A stretch of 64,000 nt of DNA from an uncultured Candidatus Saccharibacteria bacterium (GTDB lineage Bacteria > Patescibacteriota > Minisyncoccia > Phycocordibacterales > UBA1006), in NCBI GenBank assembly GCA_964592365.1, contig CAZQDL010000001.1:13198-77197 (forward strand), written 5' to 3'. The notes beneath the pieces are model-generated. The model saw nothing but the letters and a program-made list of their open reading frames with translations, searched no databases and was not told the DNA's origin. Positions 8,328 through 51,945 of this stretch are shown one piece after another. Position numbers and translations under genes: made by a program. How positions within the stretch are numbered: position 1 is the first letter of the stretch; each line of letters begins with the position of its first letter.

Positions 8328-10208
8328 ATGAAAAACTTTATTTTCTCATTGATTCTGACGGTGTTAGGATCAATGTTTGGCTACTCGCAAGAGTTGCCTA
8401 AAACGACAGCGCAACTATCTGTTGCTCAATCTATTGATAGATTTGCATATATACATAGTAGCTATAGGAATAATCATTCACTTATGGCTGGGGTTATCAT
8501 CAATGATGATGACTTCCCATCACTAAGATTAGATAATTTTAGTATATTAGAATCTTTTCGTAACCCACTTGATACCCCTGATTTTCCGTACTTTCCAACA
8601 GAGACAAGTATTTCAAATACATTAGGGAGTATTATAGGTAACGTAAATATTTCAGAAAATCATGATAATCAAGTGCGAATTTCGATCGTTAACATTAATG
8701 ATGGGTCTGTTGTGAAACAATTCACCCTAAGAAACATGAAGATTGGAGCCATGGTACGTAATCATATGCTCGTAAATGACGATTATTTGTACATACTATT
8801 GTCAGGTAATCAAAATTCTTCAACCATTGAAGATGGATATACTGGCTTTCCATTTAGTATTTCAAAAGGAACTAGATTGAATCATGACACACCAATATTG
8901 CTTCAAGTGAGGATCTCTGATTTCAGAGTAAAAACTTACGCCTTCCCCGAAGGAACAATGTTTAAAAGAGGTAATTTAACTGCCGATGAAGATGGAAACA
9001 TCTATTTACAAGCAGTAGATTCTTTGATTTCTGAGACCTTCTATTTATTAGGTCTTAATACTGAACTTGAAGTACTATTCAAATCACCTGAAATTGCCAG
9101 AGTTAAATATGATGTAGATTTGTTTAAAACTCAAATGTTACATGCAAAAATACTCGGTAATGAATATCTTGTATATTGGAATGGTGTAGCTCCTGGGATA
9201 TATAACATATCAAGAGGAGAAAACATCATTAGTACTGATTTGAAAACAGGTCTTGACTGGTCAGAAGAAATCCAATTCCACGATGTGAATATTGAATCAA
9301 TACATCACATTCCTGGAACAGATAAATTCTTACTCGTAAGACAAGTAGGAGTACATGAACGAGTTCTTCCATGGATGCAAGTAGTAAATATCTATGGAGA
9401 AAGAACTCTATTCTTCAGAGAAAGAATTGAACGTACAAAAAATGGTGTCTCTTCATTCTCTCGCCCGTATATTATCGGTTCATATTTTGATGATCAAAAA
9501 AATCTTCACTATATGGCCATGTATAACGAGGGGGGAATAGCATCTCTTAATGGAACCACCATCGCAGATGGTACCCAAGCAGATGATACGGCTATTATTT
9601 TCAAAGGAACTCTTCAAGGAATAGATGTAAATTTCTCTTCAAAAGGAGGACTTGAGAATTTTATTCCACAAAGTGGTTCTGTAACGTACGATAGTTCTGA
9701 TGGAAATAATAATGTGGTCTATTCAGGAGTTTCTGATGTATCTAATATTATTGTAAATCGCCAAGTAGCTGAAGGCTATACGGCGGTTCCTGATAGCTAT
9801 GTTCCTAGTAACGGAAGTAACTTTGTTTTTAATGCTGATTTCAGTAATAAAAGAGTTCAAAGAACAGCAATTGCGAATATCGTAAATGGCAAAGGGCAAA
9901 CAACTAGAGATCTTGATATTATAATGATAGTAAGAGAATTTGCTGATGAAAATCTATCAACTGAAGTTTTCAATGAAAATGATTTTGCTGTTTATCCAAA
10001 TCCAGCAAGTGATGAGGTGTCAGTAAGGTTTGATAGTGATGTTGAGATTAACGTTAAGATATACAATTTAATGGGCCAACTAATTTATAGAAAAACTAAT
10101 ATTTTTTCTGGAGAATCAGTTGATGTTTCATCTTTCGCAAGAGGGATGTATATTGTACACTTTTCAAATAACGAGAAGAGTATAAGTAAAAAAATCGTTC
10201 TTCAATAG
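8328..10208 (+). CDS. Secreted protein with a T9SS/Por-type C-terminal sorting domain
   Basis: N-terminal signal peptide. The last ~80 aa (DFAVYPNPASDEVSVRFDSDVEINVKIYNLMGQLIYRKTNIFSGESVDVSSFARGMYIVHFSNNEKSISKKIVLQ) match the Por_Secre_tail/TIGR04183 pattern. Confidence 0.6.
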   Translation: MKNFIFSLILTVLGSMFGYSQELPKTTAQLSVAQSIDRFAYIHSSYRNNHSLMAGVIINDDDFPSLRLDNFSILESFRNPLDTPDFPYFPTETSISNTLGSIIGNVNISENHDNQVRISIVNINDGSVVKQFTLRNMKIGAMVRNHMLVNDDYLYILLSGNQNSSTIEDGYTGFPFSISKGTRLNHDTPILLQVRISDFRVKTYAFPEGTMFKRGNLTADEDGNIYLQAVDSLISETFYLLGLNTELEVLFKSPEIARVKYDVDLFKTQMLHAKILGNEYLVYWNGVAPGIYNISRGENIISTDLKTGLDWSEEIQFHDVNIESIHHIPGTDKFLLVRQVGVHERVLPWMQVVNIYGERTLFFRERIERTKNGVSSFSRPYIIGSYFDDQKNLHYMAMYNEGGIASLNGTTIADGTQADDTAIIFKGTLQGIDVNFSSKGGLENFIPQSGSVTYDSSDGNNNVVYSGVSDVSNIIVNRQVAEGYTAVPDSYVPSNGSNFVFNADFSNKRVQRTAIANIVNGKGQTTRDLDIIMIVREFADENLSTEVFNENDFAVYPNPASDEVSVRFDSDVEINVKIYNLMGQLIYRKTNIFSGESVDVSSFARGMYIVHFSNNEKSISKKIVLQ

Positions 10209-10220
10209 AAGGACAACATA

Positions 10221-10247
10221 AAAAGCGTCATAATGACGCTTTTTTTT
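10221..10247. terminator. Bidirectional intrinsic terminator between convergent genes
   Basis: aaaaagcgtca-taa-tgacgctttttttt. Confidence 0.65.
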
Positions 10248-10252
10248 GTACC

Positions 10253-11602
10253 CTAACAAGATTGTGAAGTTGCTGGTTTAGTTGTTGTACACTGTCCATC
10301 AGGAACAACAGCTCCCAGATTATCCTTACAAGTTACGGTTCGAGTTTGTGTTCCTGTTGCTCCTTCATTCCAGGTACATGCTGCATTCAATGAAGTACAT
10401 GCAGTTGATGATGTCGGTCCTGCACACTGATTTACCGTTGTTGTATTAGTCGCTACCCATGAACAATCTCTATTCAATGAAGTACATGCAGTTGATGATG
10501 TCGGTCCTAAACAAGAAAGGAACGTTGGTGTGTATCGATTGTTACACGCAGAGTATTCAGGACAAACATAGTCATATCTAAACTGCTGTGCTTGTGTAGC
10601 TACAATCGCATCGGTTGTTGAACTCTGATCTCCACACCAAATAGCTGAACAGTTTGGCGTATTAACCGGAGATCTAACCCATCCTGAACCAGTCCAACGA
10701 GCTTTGTACCATTCTGAGTTATTTATTCCTCCTGTGTGCACTCTTACACTCCCTTGATTAGAAAGAATCTGATTGAATTGTGTTGAAGATAATTGAGAAT
10801 GCCCCTCTGAGGTATATGTACTATATGAATAATAGTATTTGTACTGAGCTTCTGTTTGGTTAGCCATGTAATAGTCTTGAGTTGTTGAACAACCAGAACA
10901 AGTTCCTCCTGTTGCCCCCATTGGATTTAAGCTATTAACACTACCTACCTGTACCCTGCTACCGTTATACACTCTATGTTCAACCCAATTGAATGCTGTC
11001 GTGTTATCAATCCAAACTTTTTGTGAAACAGGTGATACCGTATACACCCCTTCACATGAACCCCCCGCAGTTGTAGTTGTCCATGAACCTTCACATGAAC
11101 CTAGAGAAGCTGAAGTACAACTTCCCCATGCTGATGTTTCCCATGAATATGTTGCTGGTCCATTTCCACAAAGAGTAATCAAACCATCTTCATTTGAACA
11201 AACATATCTTGGGTTAGTTGCAGAAAGGTCAGCAAGAGCTGTAGACATAATGTTTCCATTTACATAAATACCTGAAGTTGTATATGTACCCATCCATGTT
11301 GCACCAAAACGAGCAGCATCAAGAACTTGTGTAACACCATTTACTTCTAAATCTTTGAAAGCTGCTGCTTTTTCTGAATAGATTTTTAAATCATCAAAAA
11401 CTGATGCAAATGATGCTGATGGATCAGTAGCTGTCTGATCAGTAAAGATTACTCGAGCATACTTATTCTGAAGATCAGTTCCTGAGATAAACTTAGCAAC
11501 AGTTGGCGTTTGAGCTACGGCTATATATCCAAGTGCAAATGTAGCAATAGCAAGAACTAGGACTCCAGCTTTTCCTCTAAATAAATGTAAAAACTTTTTC
11601 AT
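10253..11602 (-). CDS. Secreted Cys-rich, Ser/Thr-rich protein, paralogue of the TSR-like family
   Basis: Signal peptide (MKKFLHLFRGKAGVLVLAIATFALGYIAVAQT). The C-terminus ends in GTQTRTVTCKDNLGAVVPDGQCTTTKPATSQSC. It contains an internal 29-aa tandem duplication. Confidence 0.6.
   Translation of the reverse strand: MKKFLHLFRGKAGVLVLAIATFALGYIAVAQTPTVAKFISGTDLQNKYARVIFTDQTATDPSASFASVFDDLKIYSEKAAAFKDLEVNGVTQVLDAARFGATWMGTYTTSGIYVNGNIMSTALADLSATNPRYVCSNEDGLITLCGNGPATYSWETSAWGSCTSASLGSCEGSWTTTTAGGSCEGVYTVSPVSQKVWIDNTTAFNWVEHRVYNGSRVQVGSVNSLNPMGATGGTCSGCSTTQDYYMANQTEAQYKYYYSYSTYTSEGHSQLSSTQFNQILSNQGSVRVHTGGINNSEWYKARWTGSGWVRSPVNTPNCSAIWCGDQSSTTDAIVATQAQQFRYDYVCPEYSACNNRYTPTFLSCLGPTSSTACTSLNRDCSWVATNTTTVNQCAGPTSSTACTSLNAACTWNEGATGTQTRTVTCKDNLGAVVPDGQCTTTKPATSQSC
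10385..10508. repeat. Two perfect 37-nt direct repeats (10385-10421 and 10472-10508), in-frame and inside the CDS
   Basis: attcaatgaagtacatgcagttgatgatgtcggtcct occurs twice, 87 nt apart. It encodes the duplicated peptide GPTSSTACTSLN..C. Confidence 0.9.
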
Positions 11603-11738
11603 ATATGAGAATATTGTACCATGTGTAAATAAATAATGACAAATACATTCTACACTGACATGCATTAAGCACAGCTTTTTATAGATTTATTAAAGAAAAA
11701 ATTTTGAAATGTTTTTCGTTTCCACAGAAAGCTAACTT

Positions 11739-11764
11739 AAAAAGCGTCGAGACTGACGCTTTTT
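11739..11764 (-). terminator. Intrinsic terminator downstream of the 11794..13098 gene
   Basis: aaaaagcgtc-gagact-gacgcttttt. The same AAAAAGCGTC...GACGCTTTTT skeleton occurs in the terminator at 10221. Confidence 0.55.
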
Positions 11765-11793
11765 AAATTTAAATGTTTCTTTAATAAGACTAA

Positions 11794-13098
11794 TTACGAA
11801 CATGCCGGAGCAATTGGTACAAATCTGCTATAGAAACTAGGTCCTGAAATCCATGACTCTGGACTTCCAACGGTAGAATATGACGGAGTATTATTTGTAG
11901 GTGGATTATATGGATCTCCAGAAGCATTTGTGTAGATCACACTTCCTGGGCTTCCACCTCCATTTACCTGATATTTATAGTATGGATTAACTCCAAGAGG
12001 ATTCCCATTTGAAACACACTCGTAACGATACCATGTATTATCCGAACCACTAACATAATACCCATAACAAGCATCTTGCAAATTAGTTGTTGGATTAATT
12101 GAAACCTTTGATTGATTAAAGTACCCATAACTTGCTCCCTTCCAGTTGAATGGAGAGCCATCTACCCAAATAGGGCTACAGCTACTTGTATTTGAAACTG
12201 CTGCTGTTCCGGTAATTTGAATACTATTAGAAGTAACGGTTGCTCCAGTTGATTTACAAATTGCGGTAATACTTGCATTCCAAGTAATAGGTCCAAAATT
12301 ACCATGAGACACTGGTGAAACATCAGTTTGTGCTGAAGTTGAAGTGGTTGGTCCTGATACTCTTAGGCTTACATTTTCATAAGCTGATTCATCAAAATCT
12401 ACGTTCACTATTCCATTTGCACCAGAAGTAATTGTTGGGTCTTGACTAACAGAAACATCTCCTGCTGTTAATACTGGAGCCTGACAAGAAGAAACACAAC
12501 TTTGAGATACTGCGGGCTTTGTTGCAGTACACTGCCCGTCAGAAACGACAGTACCTATATTACTTCGACACTCAACAGTTCGAGTTTGGGTTCCACTTGT
12601 ACAACTCCCCCAATTTGAAGTATACCAAGAGTAGCTCGGCTGTCCTTCACAAGGAATAAGAGTATGCCGAAATGAGCATAGATTCTTGTTGGTACCCGTG
12701 TTTTTTAGAGAAGTTGCCATGATTGAACCATCAACATTTAATCGTTGTGAGAGAGGCAGTAACGAAATATCTTCAAAAGCGTTATTTGGATTTGCAACCT
12801 TAAACCCTGAATTCTTATCACCTATCCACGTCATCCCTGAAATAAGCAGATTATTTAACACCATGAACATACTTCCTGGTTTTGGAAATTGACTCAATGC
12901 AGATCCACTTCCAGAAACATTGATTCCATATCCTGGATTATCCAAATCACCGATACTTAATCGTGAAAGTGGTTGGGGCATATTTCCTGGATGTAATAAA
13001 GGTGTTATTGGATCTCCTGGTGCTGCTTCAACCGAGGTAACAGTCATTCCTAGTACGAGTATTAATACTGTATATACAATTGTTTTTAATGATTTCAT
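11794..13098 (-). CDS. Secreted Cys-rich protein with a TSR-like module
   Basis: Signal peptide MKSLKTIVYTVLILVLGMTVTSVEA. The module is SWYTSNWGSCTSGTQTRTVECRSNIGTVVSDGQCTATKPAVSQSC. Confidence 0.6.
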   Translation of the reverse strand: MKSLKTIVYTVLILVLGMTVTSVEAAPGDPITPLLHPGNMPQPLSRLSIGDLDNPGYGINVSGSGSALSQFPKPGSMFMVLNNLLISGMTWIGDKNSGFKVANPNNAFEDISLLPLSQRLNVDGSIMATSLKNTGTNKNLCSFRHTLIPCEGQPSYSWYTSNWGSCTSGTQTRTVECRSNIGTVVSDGQCTATKPAVSQSCVSSCQAPVLTAGDVSVSQDPTITSGANGIVNVDFDESAYENVSLRVSGPTTSTSAQTDVSPVSHGNFGPITWNASITAICKSTGATVTSNSIQITGTAAVSNTSSCSPIWVDGSPFNWKGASYGYFNQSKVSINPTTNLQDACYGYYVSGSDNTWYRYECVSNGNPLGVNPYYKYQVNGGGSPGSVIYTNASGDPYNPPTNNTPSYSTVGSPESWISGPSFYSRFVPIAPACS

Positions 13099-13112
13099 AT
13101 ATCTATTATGCA

Positions 13113-14021
13113 TTAGCTCTCGATAAATTGGAAGTTATTAACATCTGCATTATCCGGACAATTTGGTCCAGGACAAGTATCATCTACTCCACATCGTACT
13201 TGTGCAGATCCAACAATAATATCATTAGTGTTATCCCCTTCACATTGAATTCTAAAGAATGACCCTGAATTACCACTTGTAATTAATCCTGAATTTTCTC
13301 CTGAAGAACTTGTCCCTCGAGATCCTGGACTATTCCAAGGAGCATTTCCTGCTGTTTGACAGTTTGATACATTCTTAGAATTCCAAGAAACAGTAGCAGT
13401 TTGTCCACATGCACCAATATTTGCTGACGATCTTCCATTTACAAGAACATCGATGGTTTCAGCACATGGCCCATCAGCATCTGAAGGAGTGTTTGCTCGC
13501 GAAACGTTAGAAAAATCTAACAATCCCATTCCAACCTGAACATCACCTTGTGATTGACCACTTACATACTGTGTATCCTTTGCTTCTCCTGCTGAAAATG
13601 AACCAGTATTTGTTGAGTACACTACAGTTTGAAGACCTTCAATTGTTCCTGTATATCCACCCCATGCGAAATTTCCATCGGGAGAAAGTGCATCTGCTTC
13701 ATCATCGGTACCGTAATCAAAATCAATCCATCCAAGTGTCTCATTCCATCCCCTTCCGGTGAAATATCCGCCTCCATTCTCGGTAGTTACATAACTTACT
13801 GAATATCCATGATCAGGTTCCCATGGATCAGTAAGAGAATTAACATAAATGTTTTGACCATCCTCAGGTAAGTTTGTTGCGATAATATACCCAGTGAGAT
13901 TTCCTGTGTTCTGATAGGTACTACAATCAACCTGAGCATCAGATTGAAAAGTTGGTACACTTACCCCTACGATAAGTGAAAGAGTTAAAACTACTGCAAT
14001 TTTTTTCATCATGTTTTTCAT
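13113..14021 (-). CDS. Secreted protein, Gly/Ser/Thr-rich and Cys-containing
   Basis: Signal peptide MKNMMKKIAVVLTLSLIVGVSVPTFQSDAQ. No recognisable catalytic motif. Confidence 0.5.
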   Translation of the reverse strand: MKNMMKKIAVVLTLSLIVGVSVPTFQSDAQVDCSTYQNTGNLTGYIIATNLPEDGQNIYVNSLTDPWEPDHGYSVSYVTTENGGGYFTGRGWNETLGWIDFDYGTDDEADALSPDGNFAWGGYTGTIEGLQTVVYSTNTGSFSAGEAKDTQYVSGQSQGDVQVGMGLLDFSNVSRANTPSDADGPCAETIDVLVNGRSSANIGACGQTATVSWNSKNVSNCQTAGNAPWNSPGSRGTSSSGENSGLITSGNSGSFFRIQCEGDNTNDIIVGSAQVRCGVDDTCPGPNCPDNADVNNFQFIES

Positions 14022-30887: not shown

Positions 30888-30910
30888 CAAAAAAACCTTG
30901 TTTCACAAGG
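30888..30910 (-). terminator. Terminator downstream of tRNA-Gly
   Basis: ccttg-tttca-caagg preceded by an A-run (a T-run on the minus strand). Confidence 0.5.
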
Positions 30911-30946
30911 CTCTTGGAAGAATTTAAAGAGATGCTTTTCTCACTG

Positions 30947-31241: not shown

Positions 31242-31314
31242 CGGGGTGTGGTGTAACGGCTAACATGCTTGTTTTGGGTACAAGTGACTCCGGGTTCGAA
31301 TCCCGGCTCCCCGA
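31242..31314 (+). tRNA. tRNA-Pro (anticodon TGG)
   Basis: Acceptor stem CGGGGTG/CTCCCCG with a C1-G72 pair. Anticodon loop TTTGGGT with G37. T-arm CCGGG-TTCGAAT-CCCGG. Confidence 0.8.
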
Positions 31315-31331
31315 CAACATTATTATTTTAC

Positions 31332-31462
31332 TTGTTTCACATGAAACAAAATAAATATACTCAGTTTGTTTCACATGAAACAAGGTAAACATAGCCATAT
31401 TGTTTCATATGAAACAATAAAAAGTTATATATACCAACAAAAGGTTTCATATGAAACCTTTT
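31332..31462. repeat. Array of four palindromic sites with core GTTTCA-YA-TGAAAC
   Basis: 31332-31349 and 31366-31383 are the identical 18-mer ttgtttcacatgaaacaa. 31398-31419 is a perfect 22-nt palindrome, tattgtttcatatgaaacaata. 31439-31462 is a perfect 24-nt palindrome, aaaaggtttcatatgaaacctttt. Centre-to-centre spacing is 34, 34 and 42 bp. The last site plus its T-run also looks like a terminator. Confidence 0.85.
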
Positions 31463-31485
31463 TATTAAATAATTATTAAGGACAT
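31459..31485. repeat. 27-nt sequence tttttattaaataattattaaggacat, identical to 36878-36904
   Basis: Exact match between the two loci. Here it is followed by the imperfect inverted copy atgtcctt 17 nt later. Confidence 0.85.
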
Positions 31486-31620
31486 TTTAAAAGACAAATG
31501 CATGTCCTTTATTCCCACAATCCACTGAGTTATCCACAATTGTCCAATAGAAGACCTGTGTCCTATGGAAAAGCTTGATTAATTAATAAAAGTATTTACA
31601 ATCAAATCGTTGGTTCAAAT

Positions 31621-31692
31621 CCACCTGTGGTGAAATGGATATCACAACGGTCTTCGGAACCGTTATTCCAGGTTCGAGTCCTGGCGGGTGGA
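31621..31692 (+). tRNA. tRNA-Arg (anticodon TCG)
   Basis: Acceptor stem CCACCTG/CGGGTGG. D-arm GTGA-AATGGATA-TCAC. Anticodon arm ACGGT-CTTCGGA-ACCGT. T-arm CCAGG-TTCGAGT-CCTGG. Confidence 0.7.
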
Positions 31693-31723
31693 CATATATA
31701 TAAAAGACCTTTTGCAAGGTCTT

Positions 31724-33478
31724 TTATGCTAGGTACTTTCTGATGTCCTCCTTTGTTAGCCCAATCTTCTTTCCAGGATTGAATATATTATTAGGATCAA
31801 AGATATTCTTTATTTCTTTGAAAACTAACATCATTTCCTCTCCAAACATTTGTGGAAGAAAAGGGGTTCTTACAATACCATCATTATGCTCTGCAGTAAT
31901 GGAACCGCCGAGGCTTAGAGCCAAATCGTATACTTTCTCTGAAATTTCCACAATTTTATCCTTGTTTTCCTCTTTATTCATATCAACCAATGGAATTATG
32001 TGAAAATTACCATTTCCAAGGTGACCAGCAATGGTATACATGAATTCATCCTTATATTCATCTAATATTTGAACTAGTTTAGGAATATACTCAGGAAGAT
32101 ACTTAGGGTCCACAGCTATGTCGTCGATAAATGGGGCAGTACGTGTCCCTTGTCCCGTTTTTCTTGTCTTTAGTGAATGTTCAGTTAATAGTTTAAAGCT
32201 ATCATGTCTGAAATCCCAGTATTTTTGTGCATTTTTCTCGCCTTTTACGATAAATGACTTAAGCCCAGGTATTTCTCGTTTAAGATCATTAAGTTCGGCT
32301 TTTACTTCTTTTTCCAAAGTAAATCCGCTTGAATCAACACTTTCAGCAAGAACGACAAACTTTGGAACTCCTCCAGTAAGAGCCATCCAGAATTCTGGCA
32401 AAAATCTTATACTATATTTCATTGCTGAGAAGAAACCCTTGTCCTTTATAAAGTCCTTAAAGAATTTAATCCCTATTTTGAAGGTATTATCATCATAGAG
32501 CTCAATAGTTTCTAAATCATACTTGTTCAAAACAGTAACAATTTGAGGTAATTGTTGAATATCATCAACAAACATAACGATAAGTGCCTCTTTTTCCTCC
32601 TGTTTCACAAGCTTATACTCTATTTTCGTAATAATTCCAGTTGTTCCCTGCGATCCAACAAATAACTTTGTTAAATCAAAGTATCCATTACCAGCCTCAA
32701 AGGATTCAATAGAATCAGCTGATATTACATCCCAAATCAGGTATCCAGCAGCATTTTTAGCTGTTTTTGGCCTTTTTTCTTGAATAATTTCCCAGTTTTC
32801 CTTTATCAAAGCATATGTTTCACGTGATACCTTTCCAAATTCGCTGTCTTCAAGCATTATTTCCTCTAATTGCGAGAAATTAACTTGTTTCACGTGATAC
32901 ATATTCCCATCTGAAAGAATTACCTCAAGTGAATGTACAAAATCCCTGTTCTGACCATATTTTAGAGACTTTTCACCCGCACCATTATTAGCAACCATAC
33001 CTCCAATAGCGCAGAGCTTTCTTGATGCTGGAAATACTGGCATTATCAAATTATGTTTCACAGTTTCACGTTCAAAATCTATATATGAAATTCCAGGCTG
33101 TGAAACGGCTAGTCCTTCTATTTTGTATGGAAACCCCTTATGATGTTCCTGTGTTCCATAATCTCCTTTTGTAATTTCGTAGAAATTGTTTAAGTATCTA
33201 GTAATATCCAAAATAATCGAGTCATTCAATGAACCTCCTGTCATTCCTGAACCAGCAGCTCTTGGTGTTAAGCTAAAATTTGAGCCCTTACTGTTTTCTT
33301 GATTAACAAAAAGAACGAGTTTTTTGATATCTTCCTCATTCTTTGGATACACAACCATCTGAGGTGTAATTTTGAATAACGACCAATCGGTTGAATGGCT
33401 TTCTAAATCATCTTTATTTGTTGTAACATCACCTTCTAATATATTAGAGAGATGAATTTCTGCTTCTTGATATGTCAT
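31724..33478 (-). CDS. FAD-linked oxidase (FAD_binding_4 / GlcD-D-lactate dehydrogenase-like)
   Basis: N-terminal FAD-binding region with GGMVANNGAGEKSLKYG and a C-terminal oxidase domain. Confidence 0.7.
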   Translation of the reverse strand: MTYQEAEIHLSNILEGDVTTNKDDLESHSTDWSLFKITPQMVVYPKNEEDIKKLVLFVNQENSKGSNFSLTPRAAGSGMTGGSLNDSIILDITRYLNNFYEITKGDYGTQEHHKGFPYKIEGLAVSQPGISYIDFERETVKHNLIMPVFPASRKLCAIGGMVANNGAGEKSLKYGQNRDFVHSLEVILSDGNMYHVKQVNFSQLEEIMLEDSEFGKVSRETYALIKENWEIIQEKRPKTAKNAAGYLIWDVISADSIESFEAGNGYFDLTKLFVGSQGTTGIITKIEYKLVKQEEKEALIVMFVDDIQQLPQIVTVLNKYDLETIELYDDNTFKIGIKFFKDFIKDKGFFSAMKYSIRFLPEFWMALTGGVPKFVVLAESVDSSGFTLEKEVKAELNDLKREIPGLKSFIVKGEKNAQKYWDFRHDSFKLLTEHSLKTRKTGQGTRTAPFIDDIAVDPKYLPEYIPKLVQILDEYKDEFMYTIAGHLGNGNFHIIPLVDMNKEENKDKIVEISEKVYDLALSLGGSITAEHNDGIVRTPFLPQMFGEEMMLVFKEIKNIFDPNNIFNPGKKIGLTKEDIRKYLA

Positions 33479-36882: not shown

Positions 36883-36939
36883 TATTAAATAATTATTAAG
36901 GACATGTGTCCTTTAGAAATGTCCTTAATAATTATTTAA
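36883..36939. repeat. Perfect 22-bp inverted repeat with a 13-bp spacer (candidate recombination site)
   Basis: attaaataattattaaggacat-gtgtcctttagaa-atgtccttaataattatttaat. It contains the nested palindrome aaggacatgtgtcctt and lies 18 bp downstream of the recombinase stop. Confidence 0.85.
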
Positions 36940-36957
36940 TGTTTCTCTGTTTCATAT

Positions 36958-37872
36958 TTACCCTTTCTTATGAAACTTCTTATGAACATCTCTCAGTTGA
37001 CGGTCAGTTATGTGTGTATATATCTGTGTTGTGGCAATGTTACTGTGCCCCAGCATAATTTGAACACTTCGTATGTCTGCACCGTTTCTCAGTAAATCAG
37101 TTGCGAAGCTATGTCTAATAGTGTGTGGCGTAACTCTTTTTGAGATCCCAGCCTTAATGGCAATCTGTTTCACAATTCGTTCCACAGAACGTGGAGTTAA
37201 TCTAATTGACTCTTGGTTCTCAAGACGTTTCACGAGACCTGGGCCTTCTTGAATAAATAGAGCCTCATCAACATCTGCTCTTGAAGCCATGTATTTCTTC
37301 AGTGAAACACGTGCCTCTTCAGACAAAAAGACAATTCTAATTTTTTCTCCTTTTCCTCTAATGCTGAATTCATCCTTGGATAAATCAAGATCCCTATTTA
37401 AAGAACAGAGTTCAGAAATTCGAAGACCAGTTGAAAAGAGAAGATTAATGATTGCATGATCACGTAGATGACTACTTGATACTTCAATCATACGTAATAG
37501 TTCATTTCCATCTAAATGATCAATATGCCTCTCTCCTACTTTTGCCAGTTCAATTTTGTCAGGACTATACGAAGAAATATTTTGCTGCATTAAATATTTT
37601 AGAAATACTCGAAGAGCAATGAGGTGATAATTTTGGGTTCTTTTCTTTAGCGTAGTTGCTGCCTGACCTTTTTGTTTTATTCCTGGTTGACGGTTCAAGT
37701 GTAATCTAAACTCTCGAATACATTCTGAGTTAATTTCACTTGTTGTTGAAATCTTACTAAAGTTAATAAATCGTTTGATATACCTTTTATAATTTACGAC
37801 AGTCTTAAGACTTCTTCCTTTTTCAATTTCGATGTACTCAAGAAAGCGAGTAAGTGCATCATTAATGTTCAT
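36958..37872 (-). CDS. Tyrosine site-specific recombinase, XerC/XerD-like
   Basis: The C-terminal catalytic region HTIRHSFATDLLRNGADIRSVQIMLGHSNIATTQIYTHI provides the R..HxxR..Y tetrad. Total length is 304 aa. Confidence 0.8.
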   Translation of the reverse strand: MNINDALTRFLEYIEIEKGRSLKTVVNYKRYIKRFINFSKISTTSEINSECIREFRLHLNRQPGIKQKGQAATTLKKRTQNYHLIALRVFLKYLMQQNISSYSPDKIELAKVGERHIDHLDGNELLRMIEVSSSHLRDHAIINLLFSTGLRISELCSLNRDLDLSKDEFSIRGKGEKIRIVFLSEEARVSLKKYMASRADVDEALFIQEGPGLVKRLENQESIRLTPRSVERIVKQIAIKAGISKRVTPHTIRHSFATDLLRNGADIRSVQIMLGHSNIATTQIYTHITDRQLRDVHKKFHKKG

Positions 37873-43974: not shown

Positions 43975-44619
43975 TTATGTATTCAACTCTGGAATATTTC
44001 GATGTCCTTCACCTGGGTTAAACATGTTGTAGAATACTTCGATAGCTTGTTGGGTGTTTAGCTGTTCTGAACGTACACCAAAACGTGATAGCCCACCCTT
44101 TACGATAGCTACACGCTGTTCAAGCTGACTTCGCTGTTCTTCGAATCTTTGAGTCTCTTCTTGAAATGACTTTTTCTTTGTAGAAAGTAAGTCCTTAAAT
44201 ATACTACTGGTGCTTTGTTGTGCAGTGAATGCCGCTCCTGAATATGGAACAACTACATAAAATCGTTTAGACATGATATTTACTGAGTCAGTAAACCATC
44301 TGATAAATTCAATATATTCTCTAGTTTGTAATCGAAGAAGCTCTTCTGTTTGTTGTCCAATTCTTTGCTCAAGAGTCATTAGATATGGCTTTATATCATA
44401 TCTACGTGATCCAACTGCAATTTGAACAGGGAAATCAAGTGAGTTGAGGAATCCTTGGAATTGCATAATAACAGCTTGCTGTTCATCTTCTGATTTTAAG
44501 GCAATGTTAATAGCCGAAGCAAGTAATATTGCTCTTAAACTTCCATCTTGAAGTACTACAATACCGTCACGAATTTCTTTGATAGGTATAAAATCTTGTG
44601 TTCTTGGTCCGTTTGCCAT
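43975..44619 (-). CDS. VirB4 N-terminal-domain-like protein (soluble, 214 aa)
   Basis: The N-terminal segment FIPIKEIRDGIVVLQDGSLRAILLASAINIALKSEDEQ resembles the conserved start of VirB4/TrbE ATPases (compare Agrobacterium VirB4 LPYIGHLSDHIVLLEDGSIMSIARIDGVAFELEE). It lies directly downstream of the VirB3-like gene. Confidence 0.45.
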   Translation of the reverse strand: MANGPRTQDFIPIKEIRDGIVVLQDGSLRAILLASAINIALKSEDEQQAVIMQFQGFLNSLDFPVQIAVGSRRYDIKPYLMTLEQRIGQQTEELLRLQTREYIEFIRWFTDSVNIMSKRFYVVVPYSGAAFTAQQSTSSIFKDLLSTKKKSFQEETQRFEEQRSQLEQRVAIVKGGLSRFGVRSEQLNTQQAIEVFYNMFNPGEGHRNIPELNT

Positions 44620-44672
44620 ATGAGTACCTCCAGTATACCACTATTAAAAAAATCTCTCATCAAATGAGAGAT

Positions 44673-45086
44673 TTATTCTTCTGAATCAAGAATATCTAAA
44701 CTCCAAGCAAGGTCAGAAACTCTCTGTTGGTGAATTCGCTGTTGAGTATCTGTAAATAGCTGAGGAGTTTCTGGTAGTTCTTTTATTTCAACTGAATTGC
44801 TCTTTTCTTCTTTTCTTCTCCATAGGTAGAATCTTTCTGAAAAAGCATAGATGAGGTAGGATTCAACCATTTTAATAAAAGGTCGTCCGTTTGGTTTGAT
44901 AAACACTAAAGCTAGGGTAAATGCTGCAATAGGTAAACCAAGTATTACCACAACAAAGGTAGGTAGAAGTCGGTAGATCAAGAAGATAAGTCCACCTCCA
45001 CCAACTAAATAAATAGATTGTTTGAAGGTGAAGGGACCAAATAGCTTATCCTCTACATTAATAAATTGGGGAACTTCAAATCTCAT
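44673..45086 (-). CDS. PrgI/VirB3-like small membrane protein
   Basis: 137 aa. N-terminal FGPFTFKQSIYLVGGGG followed by two TM helices, as in Gram-positive PrgI-family VirB3 analogues. Confidence 0.5.
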   Translation of the reverse strand: MRFEVPQFINVEDKLFGPFTFKQSIYLVGGGGLIFLIYRLLPTFVVVILGLPIAAFTLALVFIKPNGRPFIKMVESYLIYAFSERFYLWRRKEEKSNSVEIKELPETPQLFTDTQQRIHQQRVSDLAWSLDILDSEE

Positions 45087-45122
45087 ACTTTTAGTATATC
45101 TCTATAGTTTTTTTCTGTCATC

Positions 45123-46139
45123 TTAAGATGAAAAAGATATGCTAATATTTTCTGAAGCTGATTGTAAAATATTATTTATACTGTCTAGATTTACCCCAAT
45201 ATCAACATTTCCAGATTGTCCTCCTGATGAAATAAATAGTTCATTCTGTCTTCCAAAATCTTGAGGAGCTTGATTTTCATTATTGATAGACCACTGTACG
45301 AAAAGATCAGTAAAATTTCTTTGTATAGTACTCATGTGTAAAGGATGGAAAGAAAATTTTACCTGAGATCCATTTATTTCTGAACGAGTATTTAATGCTC
45401 TTTGAGTAAGAATTCTTTCCTTTTCATCAATTTCGTAGAATAAGATTTTTGGTAAGAAGGTATTTGTTGAAATATCAATAGTGTTACGCGCAAAAGAGTT
45501 TTCTCTTCTGTCATTTGCCGTCACGCTAATCTTTTCAGTAAAGTTTAGCGCCCCTGCTTCTATCGTATATGATTGTCTTCCAAAACCAGATGCCTTACTA
45601 TCATTAGTGTAATTATTTTCCCAATAGTAAATTAAATTTTTAGCATCAGTTGGTGAAATTAACTGAGTTTGAGGAATTGCTGTTATCTTTATCGTTGATT
45701 GAGGTAAGGGAAGTACCTTTCCTTTATAAAAAGGAGGGATATATCCATCTTCAACTTCCCAAAGAAGATCTATTTCTGAAGGTGAAAATCTAAGTTCTTT
45801 TCTAAAAACCTGATTACCAATTTCAATAACAGCAGTAAGGTTAGTTACACTACCTAAAGAGCCTGTTCTAAAAACAAATTCCTTTGCTCCATAATCTGCG
45901 CTTTTTCTCTCACCATTTTCAAACCAAGAAATATAATAGTTATTAAGATTAAAGCTATAACTATTAAGAATTACTCGAACTTCTTCATCAACTCCAGGAA
46001 TAAGGGGGATTGTTTCAACTAAAATATCGTTTTCTGAATAAAGTGATACCCCTTGGGCCTTCACTTCTTTGGTAACAAGAAAAAAACTGATTATCAGAAA
46101 AAAGATTAGAGATATAGTCAGTAGAGGTTTTCTTTTCAT
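45123..46139 (-). CDS. Secreted or bitopic protein (338 aa), possible T4SS accessory component
   Basis: N-terminal signal/anchor sequence. No known motif. In an operon with the VirB3-like and VirB4N-like genes. Confidence 0.4.
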   Translation of the reverse strand: MKRKPLLTISLIFFLIISFFLVTKEVKAQGVSLYSENDILVETIPLIPGVDEEVRVILNSYSFNLNNYYISWFENGERKSADYGAKEFVFRTGSLGSVTNLTAVIEIGNQVFRKELRFSPSEIDLLWEVEDGYIPPFYKGKVLPLPQSTIKITAIPQTQLISPTDAKNLIYYWENNYTNDSKASGFGRQSYTIEAGALNFTEKISVTANDRRENSFARNTIDISTNTFLPKILFYEIDEKERILTQRALNTRSEINGSQVKFSFHPLHMSTIQRNFTDLFVQWSINNENQAPQDFGRQNELFISSGGQSGNVDIGVNLDSINNILQSASENISISFSS

Positions 46140-46219
46140 TTATACTTATATTATACCTAGACATATATATTTAACAAAAGTAATTTATTTTAATATAGAT
46201 ATATCGTATAATAGTAAGC

Positions 46220-48376
46220 ATGAAAAAGTTTTTATTATTTTCACTCCTTACTATTATCTTCTCTTTTGGTGTTCAATATAACAATGAAGCTATTGCTCAA
46301 GAAGAATGTTCTGTTACTTCAGCTTCGTTTAGTGAAATTACGGGGTGGACAAGTAGCAACCGGTTTGAAGGAAACTTTACAAACCTAACCATTAGTACTT
46401 CAGGTGACTGTTCTGCTGGATTAAGCATTAACTTAAAAAAAGTAGATGATAGAGGAAAACACTTGCCGGCTGTTATTAATAAAATGCCAGCAAAACTTGT
46501 ACCTGGTCCTATATCTAAGAAAATAATTGCCAAGTTTAAGCTTTATGAAGATACCTGTTATGGATACAATAATGAATCTACTCGCGGCCTTAATTGGGGA
46601 TATGACTGTGTTACATATATTGAAATAACTCATAAAGATAAGGTAATATTTTCACCTAAAAATGTAACAGGATTCAATGCTGACTACATTCGAGATACCA
46701 AAGATTCAATCGTAGAGATGAGAAATCAAGGAATTCTACTTGGAAACTGTACCTTAGATTGTGCATACGGTACTCAAGATGAGAAAGGTGCTCATAACTG
46801 GATTTTTTGGGGGACGTTTGATGGAAATGGCTCAATTGGAGATTCAAATGCCCTTCAAAGTAAATGTAAAATAACCGACGAAGATGTTTCTTTCAGCGGG
46901 ATGAAGAATAGAGTAATAACAAATGCTTCTCCTGTACTAAAAATAAATACTAAAGACTGTATTGGTGTTAAATTAAGTGTAAGCCTTATGGAAGGAAGTG
47001 GTTACATAGATATTGAAATTAATGATGACGTTACGAGGACAACGATTGATGTTATCCCAAAAGATGAAGTTGTTACTTTTTTATATGAAGCAGGGAATGA
47101 GGAGTGTAATATTTTAGGTAATCCTGATTGTCAGATATATCTTTACATACAATACAATGGAAATGTCTATAGTAATGAGGAACTTCTTACCGGTCACATA
47201 TACAAATATGCTGAGTCAGAAACATATTCTTCATACTTAGATGATGGAATCCTTCTTGGAGATTGTGCTTATGTTGCTCCCACTAATCAATTTAATTTTG
47301 TATCAAATTGTTTAGCTGGAAAAAGTGATTGGACCCTAAAGGGAGTAGATGGAGTTGAAACATCAGCAACAGGATCTCCTGCACAAGAAGTTGCCATTAC
47401 ACAAAAATTTGATAGAAATCACCCCTGTCACAATGGAAAATCTGGAGATGAAGAGGCATATCTCCGAGATTGTTATGAACTCCTTGCTCCCATTCCTGGA
47501 ATCTCAAGTACATATACTGATGGATCAGGATCAACAAGAAGTACTGGTTTTGAAGTAACAGAAGATGGACGTCAGTTTGTTAAAAACATTGGTCAATTAC
47601 AAATTGGTGATTATATAAATACTTTAGTAAGGATTGCATTAGGAGTACTTATTGTTCTTTCAATTATCATGATAATAATTGCAGGAGTTGAGTACATGGT
47701 TCAAGAAAGTATGTTTGGAAAATCTGCTGCGAAATCAAGAATTGCTAATGCATTAAGTGGTCTAATTGTTGGATTAAGTATCTATTTAATCCTTTCAACA
47801 ATTAACCCACAACTTCTTGAAGTTAACTTTTCACCACCAGTACAAGAACTACTGGTTATCGGAGATGGAGGGGTTGAGCCAGTTGATCTTCCTTCTTTTG
47901 ATATTCCAGGAAACAGTTTGTGTAGTAGCTTTACTACTATTAACCAACCGGGGGCTATTCGCGCTAAAAAATTCAGTGTATGTAGCACGATAGCACCTAA
48001 GATTAATAATTTACTGAAAGATGCAAAGGCCGATGGTATTATTCTTAGTGCTTACGGGGCAAGAGAAACAAAAAAACAGATCGAATTACGAGTTAAAAAC
48101 TGTGGGGGTACTGCTCAGGTATATAATCCAAAAGCTACTTGTAAACCTCCAACAGCTCTCCCAGGTCAATCTATGCATGAAAGTGGATTAGCTTTAGATT
48201 TTATTTGTGTTGATGGAAACAAAGAAGGAACTGTTAATGTACATGAAGGAAATACAAATGGAACTAAAAAGGAGTGGACAAGGGGATGCTATGAATGGAT
48301 CAAGAAAAATGCATCTAAATATGGACTGAAGGGTCTCAAATCAGAAAATTGGCACTGGTCAACAACAGGAAGATAA
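46220..48376 (+). CDS. Surface protein with an internal TM hairpin and a C-terminal M15 (VanY/D-Ala-D-Ala carboxypeptidase-like) peptidoglycan peptidase domain
   Basis: Signal peptide. Two TM helices at about aa 465-525. C-terminal SAYGAR...QSMHESGLALDF...ENWHW matches the LAS/M15 motifs (SxHxxGxAxD and a terminal His). Confidence 0.6.
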   Translation: MKKFLLFSLLTIIFSFGVQYNNEAIAQEECSVTSASFSEITGWTSSNRFEGNFTNLTISTSGDCSAGLSINLKKVDDRGKHLPAVINKMPAKLVPGPISKKIIAKFKLYEDTCYGYNNESTRGLNWGYDCVTYIEITHKDKVIFSPKNVTGFNADYIRDTKDSIVEMRNQGILLGNCTLDCAYGTQDEKGAHNWIFWGTFDGNGSIGDSNALQSKCKITDEDVSFSGMKNRVITNASPVLKINTKDCIGVKLSVSLMEGSGYIDIEINDDVTRTTIDVIPKDEVVTFLYEAGNEECNILGNPDCQIYLYIQYNGNVYSNEELLTGHIYKYAESETYSSYLDDGILLGDCAYVAPTNQFNFVSNCLAGKSDWTLKGVDGVETSATGSPAQEVAITQKFDRNHPCHNGKSGDEEAYLRDCYELLAPIPGISSTYTDGSGSTRSTGFEVTEDGRQFVKNIGQLQIGDYINTLVRIALGVLIVLSIIMIIIAGVEYMVQESMFGKSAAKSRIANALSGLIVGLSIYLILSTINPQLLEVNFSPPVQELLVIGDGGVEPVDLPSFDIPGNSLCSSFTTINQPGAIRAKKFSVCSTIAPKINNLLKDAKADGIILSAYGARETKKQIELRVKNCGGTAQVYNPKATCKPPTALPGQSMHESGLALDFICVDGNKEGTVNVHEGNTNGTKKEWTRGCYEWIKKNASKYGLKGLKSENWHWSTTGR

Positions 48377-48379
48377 TAT

Positions 48380-50035
48380 ATGAAAATCAATATCAAAAAA
48401 GTAATACTCTTTATCATCATTAGTACCGCACTCATTTTAGGAGGGGTATGGCTTTTTGGATATTTTCAAAATGGTAATCAAGGTGAAGAAACTTCAGGTG
48501 GTTTAAGAAATTTATTTCCATTCGGAGAAATCTTTTCTGGATCAAGGAATGAAGAAAATAGTCAAAACATCATTCTTGATGAAAATGGTAATCCTGTTCA
48601 ACAAGTTGATGGAGAAGAAGATGTTGTTAATGCAACAAGACCTCAACTTCAACTTATCACAAATAAACCAACAGGTGGTTTTGTAGCCTTAACAAGAATT
48701 ACACAGGAAGAAGTACTCACTGAAACAACCTTGCCTGACGGAACAACAAGTCAGCAATCATCTATTGCAGATATTGAGCAATCTCTCATTCGATATAGTG
48801 ATATTAATTCTGGTACGATATATGAAACAGCTCTCGGTGGTGAAAATGCATTCAATGAAGTAAAGGTGATTGATAATGTGATACCAAATGCTGAACACTC
48901 ATTTTTCTCAGCTAATGGTAACCATGTAGCCTTTCAATATTGGGATGAGGGAGATAGAGAAATAGAAACATATCTAGCAACGATAAGTCTTCTCTCATAC
49001 CAAGCTGAGCCTTGTGGATATAGTTTTGAAGGAACTCTAGTGCTTGGCGAAGAAAGTGAGTTTGCACTCAATCTCCATCGTTTCCTTAACTTAGTTCCAG
49101 AAACACAATTAGCAAGCTCAGGGATAAATAGTTTAGGAAATGAATCTCCTTTAGTAACACAGTCTACTTTCGATGCTATATCACGCTTCCAGACAGTTCA
49201 TAATCTTTCTGTTGATGGTTCATTAGGTCCTCAGACACGTTCAAAAATGATAGAAGTATGTAATCTTCAAGAAGAACAAAAGGCTAAGGAACGTTTTGAA
49301 AATTCAGATACTAAATATGAAATCTTTGGATCTTTTCTTCCAGAAGGAATAGTAAGTTTAAGTATGCACCCTCTTGAAAATAAACTTTTCTTTTTAGAAA
49401 AGAGTGCTTCAGGGATATTAGGGAATATATACGATCTAATGTCACAAGAACGGAAAACCGTATTTACATCACCATTCACTGAATGGTTAAGCTATTGGAA
49501 TATTGGTAGAAATGTTGAACTTGTAACCAAACCAAGTTATGGAGTTGAAGGGTATAGTTATAACTTGAATATTGATAATGGTGATTACAAAAAATCATTT
49601 AGAGAACGAAAAGGTCTTATGGTATTACCAAGTCCTGATGATAAGAAATTATTAGTATTTGATACTGAACAAGGTAGACCGAGTCTATCTATCTATGAAA
49701 GAGAATTAAATAGATTTCTCCCTCTATCCATTCAAACCTTTATAGATAAGTGTGTATGGTCAACTACTAGTGAATATCTCTTCTGTGGCGTTCCTGATTC
49801 GTTTGGATATGGTGATGTATACCCTGATACGTGGTATCAAGGACTTGAAACATACAGTGATAGTCTATGGAGAATTGACGCAACAACTCTTGAAGAAGAA
49901 GTTCTAAGCGACATGGTTAGTGATTATTCATTAAGCATTGATATTGAAAAAATTAATATTGATAGAAAAAATGAATTTCTGTTCTTTATTGATAAGAATT
50001 CTGAATTTCTTTGGAGTTATCGTATAGAAGAATAA
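48380..50035 (+). CDS. Membrane-anchored protein with a PG_binding_1-like domain and a C-terminal beta-rich domain
   Basis: N-terminal TM helix. TQSTFDAISRFQTVHNLSVDGSLGPQTRSKM fits the peptidoglycan-binding domain pattern. It is translationally coupled to the upstream M15 gene (4-nt gap). Confidence 0.5.
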   Translation: MKINIKKVILFIIISTALILGGVWLFGYFQNGNQGEETSGGLRNLFPFGEIFSGSRNEENSQNIILDENGNPVQQVDGEEDVVNATRPQLQLITNKPTGGFVALTRITQEEVLTETTLPDGTTSQQSSIADIEQSLIRYSDINSGTIYETALGGENAFNEVKVIDNVIPNAEHSFFSANGNHVAFQYWDEGDREIETYLATISLLSYQAEPCGYSFEGTLVLGEESEFALNLHRFLNLVPETQLASSGINSLGNESPLVTQSTFDAISRFQTVHNLSVDGSLGPQTRSKMIEVCNLQEEQKAKERFENSDTKYEIFGSFLPEGIVSLSMHPLENKLFFLEKSASGILGNIYDLMSQERKTVFTSPFTEWLSYWNIGRNVELVTKPSYGVEGYSYNLNIDNGDYKKSFRERKGLMVLPSPDDKKLLVFDTEQGRPSLSIYERELNRFLPLSIQTFIDKCVWSTTSEYLFCGVPDSFGYGDVYPDTWYQGLETYSDSLWRIDATTLEEEVLSDMVSDYSLSIDIEKINIDRKNEFLFFIDKNSEFLWSYRIEE

Positions 50036-50036
50036 T

Positions 50037-50064
50037 AAATACCACGTTTGTGGTATTTATTTTG
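50037..50064 (+). terminator. Intrinsic terminator
   Basis: aaataccac-gtttg-tggtatttattttg. Confidence 0.55.
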
Positions 50065-50097
50065 TTACAAACATAAAATTCATAGTATACTATATGC

Positions 50098-51945
50098 ATG
50101 TCATTGATTTCAGATCTACTTGAAACAAATAAAAATAAGGGAGTTCAAATAAAGCAAACTGCTGTTCCTGTAATGCCTGGTGATATCTACAAAACAGCAA
50201 CACTAGAACTTCAGGATGTTTTAGCTCCAGCAGCACTTGAAATTGGCCCTAAATCAATAAAAATTGCAGGAAAAACATCACGTACTTTTTTTGTTATGTC
50301 ATATCCTCGTTTTCTAACTGATGGATGGCTTGCTCCTATTGTTAATCTGGATAAGGTTTTTGATGTTGGAATTCATATTCACCCTATTGCAACAGAAAAA
50401 ATACTTAATGAATTTAAGAAAAAAGTTGCTGAAGTTCAATCACAAATCAATGATAGGGAATCAAAAGGCTTGGTTCGTGATCCAATTTTAGATACTGCAT
50501 ATCAAGACCTTGAACAACTGCGAGATGCTCTACAGCAAGCTCAAGAAAAAATATTCTCTGTTGGTTTATATATCACTATCTATGCTGAAAGTGATGATGA
50601 ATTGTATAAGACAGAGAATGAAATTAGATCTCTACTTGAATCAAAATTGGTATATTTAAAACCAGCATTGTTTCAACAAGTAGAAGGTTTCTTATCTGTT
50701 GCACCATTAGGGGATGATCGTTTGGAAGTTCACACAAAGTTAAATACAGGACCTGTATCATCCTTCTTTCCATTTATTTCCTCAGAACTTACTGACAACA
50801 AGGGAATTCTCTATGGTATTAATAGACATAATTCTGGATTAGTTATTTTTGATAGGTATTCATTACCTAACTACAACTCTGTGATATTTGCTACTTCAGG
50901 AGCAGGAAAGTCATATGCAACGAAGTTAGAGATTCTTCGAACTATGATGTTTGATACTGAAGTTATTGTTATTGACCCTGAGCGTGAGTATGAATACTTA
51001 GCAGAAGCTGTTGGAGGACGTTACTTTAACATTTCTCTTTCTTCAGAACATCACATTAACCCTTTTGATGTTCCTGAACCTCTTGATGATGAAGATCCAT
51101 CAGATGTGTTAAGAACACATATTATTCACTTAGTTGGTCTCTTTAGAATTATGTTAGGAGGATTATCTCCTGAAGAAGATTCTATTATCGATAGAGCTAT
51201 TACTGAAACCTATGCACTTAAAGACATTAGCGTTTCAAGTAACTACAAGGGAATTGAACCTCCACTTATGTCAGATTTTGAGATGGTTCTCTCTTCAATG
51301 GATGGAAGTGATTCACTTCTTGCAAGACTTACTAAATATACTCATGGAACATGGTCTGGTTTTATTAACAAACCATCAAATGTTGATATTAACAGGAAAC
51401 TGGTTGTATTCTCAATTAGAGATATGGAAGATGATCTTAAGCCAGCTGCTATGTATATCATCACCCAATTCATCTGGAATGCAGTTAGAAAGAACATCAA
51501 GAAAAGGTTGTTGGTAGTTGATGAGGCTTGGTGGATGATGAAGTCAGATGATACTGCTTCATTCCTATTTATGATTGCAAAACGTGGAAGAAAATATTTC
51601 TTAGGTCTTGCAACGATAACTCAAGACGTTGGTGACTTCATCAAATCACGATATGGAGTACCTATTATCACTAACAGCTCAATGCAATTACTTCTCAAGC
51701 AATCGCCCAGTGCTATTGATAATCTTCAGGAGATATTCAGATTAACTGATGAAGAGAAATATCTCCTTATGGAATCTGGAGTAGGTGAAGGAATATTCTT
51801 TGCAGGTATGAAGCATGTGGCTATTAAAATAATTGCATCATACACCGAAGATCAAATTATCACCTCTGATCCTGCTCAAGTACTTTCAATTAAAAAGGCA
51901 AAACAAGATTTGAGAGATGCAAATGCTCAAGGCTATGCAAATTAA
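50098..51945 (+). CDS. virB4: VirB4/TrbE/CagE-family conjugation-type ATPase (Gram-positive short form)
   Basis: Walker A ATSGAGKSYATK, Walker B LLVVDEAWWMM, and the conserved N-terminal RTFFVMSYPRFL region. Confidence 0.8.
   Translation: MSLISDLLETNKNKGVQIKQTAVPVMPGDIYKTATLELQDVLAPAALEIGPKSIKIAGKTSRTFFVMSYPRFLTDGWLAPIVNLDKVFDVGIHIHPIATEKILNEFKKKVAEVQSQINDRESKGLVRDPILDTAYQDLEQLRDALQQAQEKIFSVGLYITIYAESDDELYKTENEIRSLLESKLVYLKPALFQQVEGFLSVAPLGDDRLEVHTKLNTGPVSSFFPFISSELTDNKGILYGINRHNSGLVIFDRYSLPNYNSVIFATSGAGKSYATKLEILRTMMFDTEVIVIDPEREYEYLAEAVGGRYFNISLSSEHHINPFDVPEPLDDEDPSDVLRTHIIHLVGLFRIMLGGLSPEEDSIIDRAITETYALKDISVSSNYKGIEPPLMSDFEMVLSSMDGSDSLLARLTKYTHGTWSGFINKPSNVDINRKLVVFSIRDMEDDLKPAAMYIITQFIWNAVRKNIKKRLLVVDEAWWMMKSDDTASFLFMIAKRGRKYFLGLATITQDVGDFIKSRYGVPIITNSSMQLLLKQSPSAIDNLQEIFRLTDEEKYLLMESGVGEGIFFAGMKHVAIKIIASYTEDQIITSDPAQVLSIKKAKQDLRDANAQGYAN

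Follow-up and report, generated by a model that had tools for sequence, protein, structure and literature searches.

Palindromes between tRNA-Pro and tRNA-Arg

In the 64-kb stretch of DNA analysed here (the window), four palindromes lie between the genes for tRNA-Pro(tgg) (31242-31315), which they follow directly and on the same strand, and tRNA-Arg(tcg) (31621-31693), the two flanking genes being placed as in the initial annotation. A tRNA-Gly(tcc) gene is located upstream of this array on the opposite strand, and beyond tRNA-Arg the array is adjoined by a gene for an FAD-linked oxidase (31724-33478, minus strand). A motif count over the window places the common core of the palindromes, GTTTCAYATGAAAC, at 31334, 31368, 31402 and 31444, so that successive copies start 34, 34 and 42 bp apart. 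These four are the sole matches in 64 kb at one mismatch or fewer; 0.16 would be expected, and none of 100 shuffled sequences reaches the count. The tandem palindromes reported in the initial annotation are thus real (four cores within 31334-31457), as are the two identical 18-mers and the lengths of up to 24 nt that it described: the 18-mer TTGTTTCACATGAAACAA occurs identically at 31332-31349 (site 1) and 31366-31383 (site 2), and sites 3 and 4 are perfect palindromes of 22 nt (31398-31419) and 24 nt (31439-31462), respectively. The spacings that it gave are also correct, but their description as whole helical turns is true solely of the 42-bp step (4.0 turns), since 34 bp correspond to 3.2 turns.

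The first three sites belong to a genuine tandem repeat with a period of 34 nt (31332..31433, plus strand; 2.5 copies with 84% matches according to TRF), each of the three units consisting of an 18-nt palindrome and a 16-nt spacer. Comparison of the units gives identities of 94-100% for the palindromes and only 44-56% for the spacers, so that the units look like the outcome of an old local duplication in which the palindrome alone was held constant. A variable-number repeat was rejected in view of three metagenome copies of the same strain, which are 100% identical across 521 nt and over the whole intergenic region, and a REP or MITE-like dispersed repeat in view of the absence of the motif from the remaining 62 kb.

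Two further copies of the motif, overlooked in the initial annotation, are located inside the neighbouring oxidase gene, 1.4 kb from the array: TGTTTCACGTGATACC at 32816..32831 and TGTTTCACGTGATACA at 32886..32901. On the gene strand the former reads G GTA TCA CGT GAA ACA and encodes VSRET, and the latter reads (A)TG TAT CAC GTG AAA CA and encodes YHVK. The two are 70 nt apart and therefore lie in different reading frames.

Match to the chromosomal parS consensus

The published consensus of chromosomal parS is TGTTNCACGTGAAACA (PMC7022226, Table 1), and the motif is this sequence with the central CG replaced by CA or TA. The kind of motif was missed in the initial annotation, whose list of consensus sequences omitted parS. 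Sites 1 (31333..31348) and 2 (31367..31382), in the first and second 34-bp units, both have the sequence TGTTTCACATGAAACA and agree with the consensus at 15 of 16 positions; site 3 (TGTTTCATATGAAACA, 31401..31416), in the third unit, agrees at 14 of 16 and has a symmetric TA centre. Site 4 is AAAAGGTTTCATATGAAACCTTTT followed by TATT (31439..31467, plus strand) and contains the parS-like 16-mer GGTTTCATATGAAACC, with 12 of 16 positions in agreement. The intragenic sites, both with a CG centre, match at 14/16 (32816) and 15/16 (32886); like sites 1-3, they are assigned to neither strand. Exactly five 16-mers in the window have three or fewer mismatches to TGTTNCACGTGAAACA, where 0.49 would be expected, and all five fall within 31333-32901.

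A weight matrix was trained on 151 sites flanking parB in 80 GTDB genomes; these 80 parB loci are those most like the first query of the ParB alignment, and they come mostly from Alphaproteobacteria, with no Patescibacteria among them. The 151 parS-like sites occur in 70 of the 80 loci (653 kb), and none is found after shuffling. Applied to the 64 kb, the matrix gives its top six scores to the six sites, namely 24.4 bits each to sites 1 and 2, 21.0 to the intragenic site at 32886, 18.6 to site 3, 16.6 to the intragenic site at 32816 and 9.8 to site 4, and the seventh-best 16-mer of the window reaches 3.8 bits. The top score per shuffled window is 4.9 bits on average and 10.5 at most. Five sites are thus far above the shuffled scores, whereas site 4 is inside the shuffle range and borderline; what makes it credible as a weak parS site is solely its possession of the 14-nt core and its place as the next element of the array. 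The whole cluster comprises five good sites and a weak one within 1.6 kb (31333-32901). Gaps of 33-40 bp between neighbouring sites recur in the 80 GTDB parB loci.

A scan of metagenome contigs for TTGTTTCAYATGAAACAA yielded at least 119 loci, with G+C contents from 25% to 60%; this organism's own contigs are not among the matches listed. Two or more clustered cores, usually mixed with the canonical TGTTTCACGTGAAACA, are present in 43 of the 119 loci listed, and parA and/or parB are located directly beside the sites in 28 of the 119 listed. Five of those ParBs consist of ParB_N plus HTH_ParB (Pfam). The variant is thus found in association with parAB in other genomes. Tandem arrays of this sort are common: arrays with spacings of 32-41 bp stand upstream of parAB in loci L007, L088 and L092, and another is present on the short contig L093, so the present layout is not new. 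The arrays of L007/L088, L092 and L093 resemble that of the window in having three to five sites, 32-41 bp apart, with CA/TG centres mixed in. However, those of L007, L088 and L092 are directly upstream of parA-parB and mostly CG-centred, whereas the array of the window adjoins tRNA-Pro and is at least 30 kb from any par gene.

With chromosomal parS (the Spo0J sites of Bacillus subtilis and those of Caulobacter, Pseudomonas and Streptococcus pneumoniae), the sites share the same 16-bp palindrome with intact arms, the presence of several copies near the origin, some of them within genes, and a variable position 5, for which the related locus L126 has TGTTACAC. They differ in three respects. Four of the six sites of the window, and most of those of its relatives, have CA or TA at the centre, whereas among the 151 control sites of the 80 genomes it is CG in 140 (93%), TG or CA in nine and TA in none; three of the sites form a strict 34-bp tandem between tRNA genes; and no parB is nearby. 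The sopC centromere of the F plasmid is built of 12 tandem repeats of 43 bp, and each of these contains a 16-bp inverted repeat to which SopB, a member of the ParB family, binds. The present array is similar in its tandem units, each with one palindrome predicted here to accommodate a ParB-family dimer, but its site sequence is another, and sopC is plasmid-borne with many more and more uniform units, whereas the array is chromosomal and has three units plus one offset site. The Noc-binding sites (NBS) of Firmicutes, ATTTCCCGGGAAAT, are bound by a paralogue of ParB and are palindromes with the same half-site frame; their arms are TATTTCC, in contrast to TGTTTCA, and the sites of the window carry the parS-specific bases.

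Origin proximity and conservation in relatives

The origin-type genes dnaA (53896-55251) and dnaN (55478-56578) are also present in the window, with rpmH-rnpA-yidC-jag divergently upstream of dnaA. The sites are 21.0-22.6 kb from the dnaA start at 53896, and are thus origin-proximal. The likely oriC region comprises 53726-53895 and 55252-55477: DnaA-box-like sequences occur at 53817 and 53839 in the rpmH-dnaA gap and at 55289, 55318 and near 55419 (TTTCCACAC) in the dnaA-dnaN gap, where they are followed by an AT-rich stretch. The G+C content goes down to 29-31% at 52-58 kb, compared with around 35% in the window overall. We infer that the exact oriC lies near dnaA; GC skew over the 64 kb is uninformative on the position of the origin. 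A replication origin at the array itself was considered on the basis of a DnaA box at 31530 and a cumulative GC skew minimum at about 33 kb, and was rejected: there is no clear switch of skew at four-fold sites, and a better arrangement of DnaA boxes and AT-rich sequence flanks dnaA.

The DnaA box at 31530, TTATCCACA, is a perfect one and belongs to a conserved non-coding block (31507-31538) approximately 50-80 bp downstream of site 4, in which it is preceded by the box-like AATCCACT and TTATTCCCA. The sequence AGTTATCCACA is invariant in L006, L126 and L127, whose FAD-oxidases are 68-70% identical to that of the window. Since tRNA-Arg is inverted beside the block in L006, the block is not simply the tRNA-Arg promoter. 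Its order of box, GAG and box resembles the TTTTCCACA GAG TTATGCACC found upstream of dnaA (53817-53837). The block may be a secondary DnaA-binding site by the predicted centromere. On a bolder reading, which we consider unlikely, the presence of this conserved box pair at a distance of 70 bp from the array might give the locus, in place of the dnaA region, a role in the working of the origin or in its control.

The two intragenic sites allow conservation of the DNA to be separated from that of the protein. In L004 and L005, whose oxidases are 83% and 74% identical to that of the window, respectively, both stretches are kept at synonymous positions, with third positions overall 48-54% identical; in L006 the sites are kept in part. 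The second site of L005 now reads GTT TCA CAT GAA ACT, a change of centre from CG to CA that has cost an Arg-to-His replacement. More distant oxidase homologues, those of L126-L128, have unrelated peptides at both site positions. Taken with the synonymous positions kept in the closer relatives, these unrelated peptides indicate that DNA, and not protein residues, is conserved. The motif is thus conserved at the DNA level in relatives, apart from any coding or RNA context.

The sources label the FAD-oxidase and YidC homologues as Candidatus Pacebacteria, Paceibacteria or Patescibacteria, which places the uncultured organism in the Paceibacteria (CPR). A check of conservation in related genomes revealed clusters of parS-like sites by tRNA-Pro in L126, L024 and L079. 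L126, a Candidatus Pacebacteria MAG from NCBI, has six such sites, most of which read TGTTACACATGAAACA; all are located in the interval from tRNA-Arg(tcg) to tRNA-Pro(tgg), and two fall within a UPF0102 gene. In L024, which is more distant (49-52% identity for the CCA enzyme, the XerC-like integrase and the Exo_endo_phos phosphatase), the order is tRNA-Pro, five sites, tRNA-Gly, tRNA-Arg and the CCA enzyme. L079, with a NusA that is 47% identical, has two sites by tRNA-Pro and a UPF0102 gene. The location of these clusters by tRNA-Pro(tgg) in all three makes the arrangement an old feature of the group.

The UPF0102 (YraN-like) genes by tRNA-Pro that hold parS-like sites are at 10061-10447 in L126 and 4131-4580 in L079; both sites in the former encode VTHET, in the same frame as VSRET in the oxidase gene of the window, and the window itself has no UPF0102 gene at the corresponding place. 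The assemblies of L004, L005 and L213 break inside tRNA-Arg or tRNA-Gly, ahead of the array region, and the L006 contig ends around 20 nt from the expected site 4, which would fit a longer or more uniform array.

In the lineage as a whole the centre is non-CG in 15 of 18 sites. Among the three relatives that were not found via the variant, it is non-CG in six of seven, against 7% in the control set (binomial p ~1e-6). The window is CpG-poor (observed/expected 0.55), with TG and CA in excess (1.14-1.17). The simplest account is that the central CpG was lost by mutational decay under a tolerant ParB. The tetranucleotide ACGT is also under-represented in the window, with 120 observed and 205 expected.

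Searches for parA and parB found neither in the 64-kb window (Pfam; tblastn), nor in 17.6 kb of flanking sequence from the 228-kb contig that contains the window (10 kb on its left side and 7.6 kb on its right; 82 kb read in all), nor around dnaA/yidC in two relatives, nor around the FAD-oxidase gene of relatives. A genome-collection scan placed no Patescibacteria among the 80 loci most like the ParB query. In many bacteria parB is not adjacent to all of its sites, and we infer the presence of a ParB in this organism from the sites themselves. CPR genomes average under 1 Mb (PMC12281837).

A type IV secretion gene set (43975-51945) adjoins jag-yidC-rnpA-rpmH and dnaA, in the place occupied by rsmG-parA-parB in many bacteria. 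It encodes a PrgI-like protein, a VirB4/TraG-type ATPase, a VanY-domain protein with a weak T4SS-pilin match and peptidoglycan-binding proteins, and the arrangement is kept in the relatives L211 and L212.

Predicted function and alternative readings

The palindromes are very probably an origin-proximal chromosomal parS cluster, that is, a set of predicted ParB sites. The assignment draws on the identity of the sequences with parS, their clustering, their proximity to dnaA, their conservation in relatives and the occurrence of the variant with parAB elsewhere. The initial annotation had proposed an array for a dimeric DNA-binding protein, which is right in kind; the part that does not hold is the transcriptional operator, in place of which we predict a centromere-like loading site for the chromosome-partition protein ParB (Spo0J).

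The ParABS mechanism has been established for other systems and has been reviewed (PMC7022226). Under this mechanism, ParB (Spo0J) dimers would load at each 16-bp inverted repeat, close into CTP-dependent clamps and spread to the flanking DNA, and the resulting origin-near complex would serve to separate sister origins, together with any ParA that the organism possesses, and/or to load SMC; the binding of ParB, like every step downstream of it, is here a prediction. The three 34-bp units would have arisen by local tandem duplication, after which the palindrome was kept and the spacers decayed. The central CG would have drifted to CA or TA in parallel with the genome-wide depletion of CpG, and the ParB of this lineage would tolerate substitutions at positions 8 and 9. 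As for site 4, it most likely has a second role in terminating tRNA-Pro, or may now be only a terminator. A more radical proposal, which we consider unlikely, is that of a centromere that has dispensed with the near-universal CpG centre and is anchored by tRNA-Pro instead of parAB, either with a ParB whose specificity has changed or relaxed at the dyad, or with canonical ParB absent and another reader in its place.

There is a small chance that the palindromes act at the RNA level, as hairpins in the tRNA-Pro transcript that serve as tandem terminators, in 3'-end protection or in the processing of a tRNA-Pro/tRNA-Arg precursor. All four fold better than shuffled sequences (-5.8 to -10.5 kcal/mol), they come directly after tRNA-Pro on its strand, and site 4 is flanked by a preceding A tract and a following U run, as are the terminators of tRNA-Gly and tRNA-Arg. 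However, sites 1-3 form stems of 7-9 bp (-5.8 to -8.0 kcal/mol) with no U run, which is not the structure of an intrinsic terminator, and a terminator scan does not call them. RNA folding agrees with the observation in the initial annotation that the last site alone is terminator-like: site 4 (-10.5 kcal/mol, then UUUUUAUU) is the only one with a U run, has the feature in a loose form, and probably terminates tRNA-Pro. Furthermore, it is the sequence and not just the pairing that is conserved, since the 14-nt core recurs in the four sites, in two frames of the FAD-oxidase gene and in the UPF0102 gene of relatives.

The initial annotation had also suggested stem-loops processed from a tRNA polycistron. 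This suggestion is not supported, given the copies of the 16-mer inside coding genes, the lack of a U tail in sites 1-3 and the sequence that separates tRNA-Arg from tRNA-Pro, which contains two terminator-like hairpins, site 4 and a further one after it (31478-31511), as well as a promoter-like site of tRNA-Arg (31575-31602). Because of the second hairpin and the promoter-like site, tRNA-Pro and tRNA-Arg are probably separate units, and neither termination nor processing accounts for sites 1-3. No Rfam family matches the array; a known RNA family was rejected, the sub-threshold microRNA matches given by Rfam being due to the palindromes. The hairpin after tRNA-Gly, which had been taken for a related motif, turns out to be an ordinary intrinsic terminator (30891-30915, minus strand) with 11 nt in common with site 1, and its counterpart in the closest relative, L213, is unrelated in sequence.

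The sites might alternatively be orphans, parS-like sequences left or re-used after loss of the canonical ParB, with another protein or none now using the palindromes. This would agree with the departure of the centre from the near-universal CG and with the searches that found no parB in the 82 kb read from this organism or in the examined regions of relatives. We regard it as distinctly improbable: the 82 kb are only a fraction of the genome, the arms, which bear the ParB contacts, are intact, and the retention of the sites at synonymous positions in several relatives demands that something read precisely this sequence.

An operator array for a local dimeric helix-turn-helix repressor, controlling tRNA-Arg or its neighbours, is very unlikely. 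The sites are indeed palindromic, 14-18 bp in length, close together and upstream of the promoter-like site of tRNA-Arg, but they end 117 bp ahead of the promoter-like hexamers without overlapping them, and no regulator gene is next to the array. In addition, the motif is parS to within one or two central bases, copies are present in coding sequence 1.4 kb away, and the same variant stands beside parAB in other genomes. A local repressor would have to share its site with ParB.

CRISPR arrays have repeats of at least 23 nt, unique spacers and cas genes; here the repeats are 18 nt, the 16-nt spacers are related to each other, there are three or four units, and the window contains no cas genes, and a CRISPR array was therefore rejected. 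The probability of a guide-RNA array of the TIGR or CRISPR-like type is close to nil: the 34-nt period is near the 36-nt TIGR unit, and TIGR systems occur in Parcubacteria and arrays of ~36-nt periodicity in CPR, but a TIGR unit has two different repeats of 8-12 nt in alternation, with spacers of 9 nt, or variable palindromes with box C/D, and is adjoined by a Nop-domain tas gene (PMC12045711), whereas each of the mere three or four units of the present array has one constant 18-nt palindrome, with spacers that are decayed copies of each other, and neither a Nop-domain Tas gene nor a cas gene is among the ORFs of the window.

As a parS cluster, the array would be an ordinary representative of an established class of elements, in a lineage for which we found no earlier description of it; its peculiarities, namely the CpG-free centre, the 34-bp tandem between tRNA genes and the distance from any par genes, are minor. 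The sites mark the probable chromosome grip for segregation and SMC loading in an uncultured, ultra-small CPR bacterium. They also offer a concrete means of finding the origin region in such MAGs and of studying how segregation proceeds in them, which is of value because our literature search found no paper on parS or ParB in Patescibacteria. The CpG-free centre is a small natural experiment on the parS positions that ParB needs, and, in the scanning of genomes, any GTTTCA..TGAAAC palindrome should be checked against parS.

Several other repeats and genes in the window were recorded. The 22-mer ATTAAATAATTATTAAGGACAT occurs three times, where none would be expected: at 31464-31485, at 36884-36905 (plus strand) and at 36919-36940 (minus strand). 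The dksA-like and xerC-like genes converge at 36.9 kb, and the two copies between them make up a long inverted repeat; the copy at 31.46 kb follows site 4 as part of a GGACAT...ATGTCC hairpin that is also present in L006. The 22-mer could represent a family of terminators or else a small repeat element of palindromic type. The xerC-like gene has at its 3' end (36949-36976) another inverted repeat, GTTTCATA...TATGAAAC, whose halves are separated by 12 nt; it has the arms of parS half-sites at the wrong spacing and a low parS score. The sequence CCTTCACATGAACC is present at 11049-11062 and 11088-11101, 39 nt apart, in the gene at 10253-11665; it is not parS-like, and the pair is probably an internal repeat of the protein. 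A protein of 626 aa (8328-10208) carries a C-terminal Por_Secre_tail domain (type IX secretion sorting; E 1e-16), which is unexpected in a Patescibacterium, and large neighbouring proteins (6483-13113) show weak matches to thrombospondin-type repeats.
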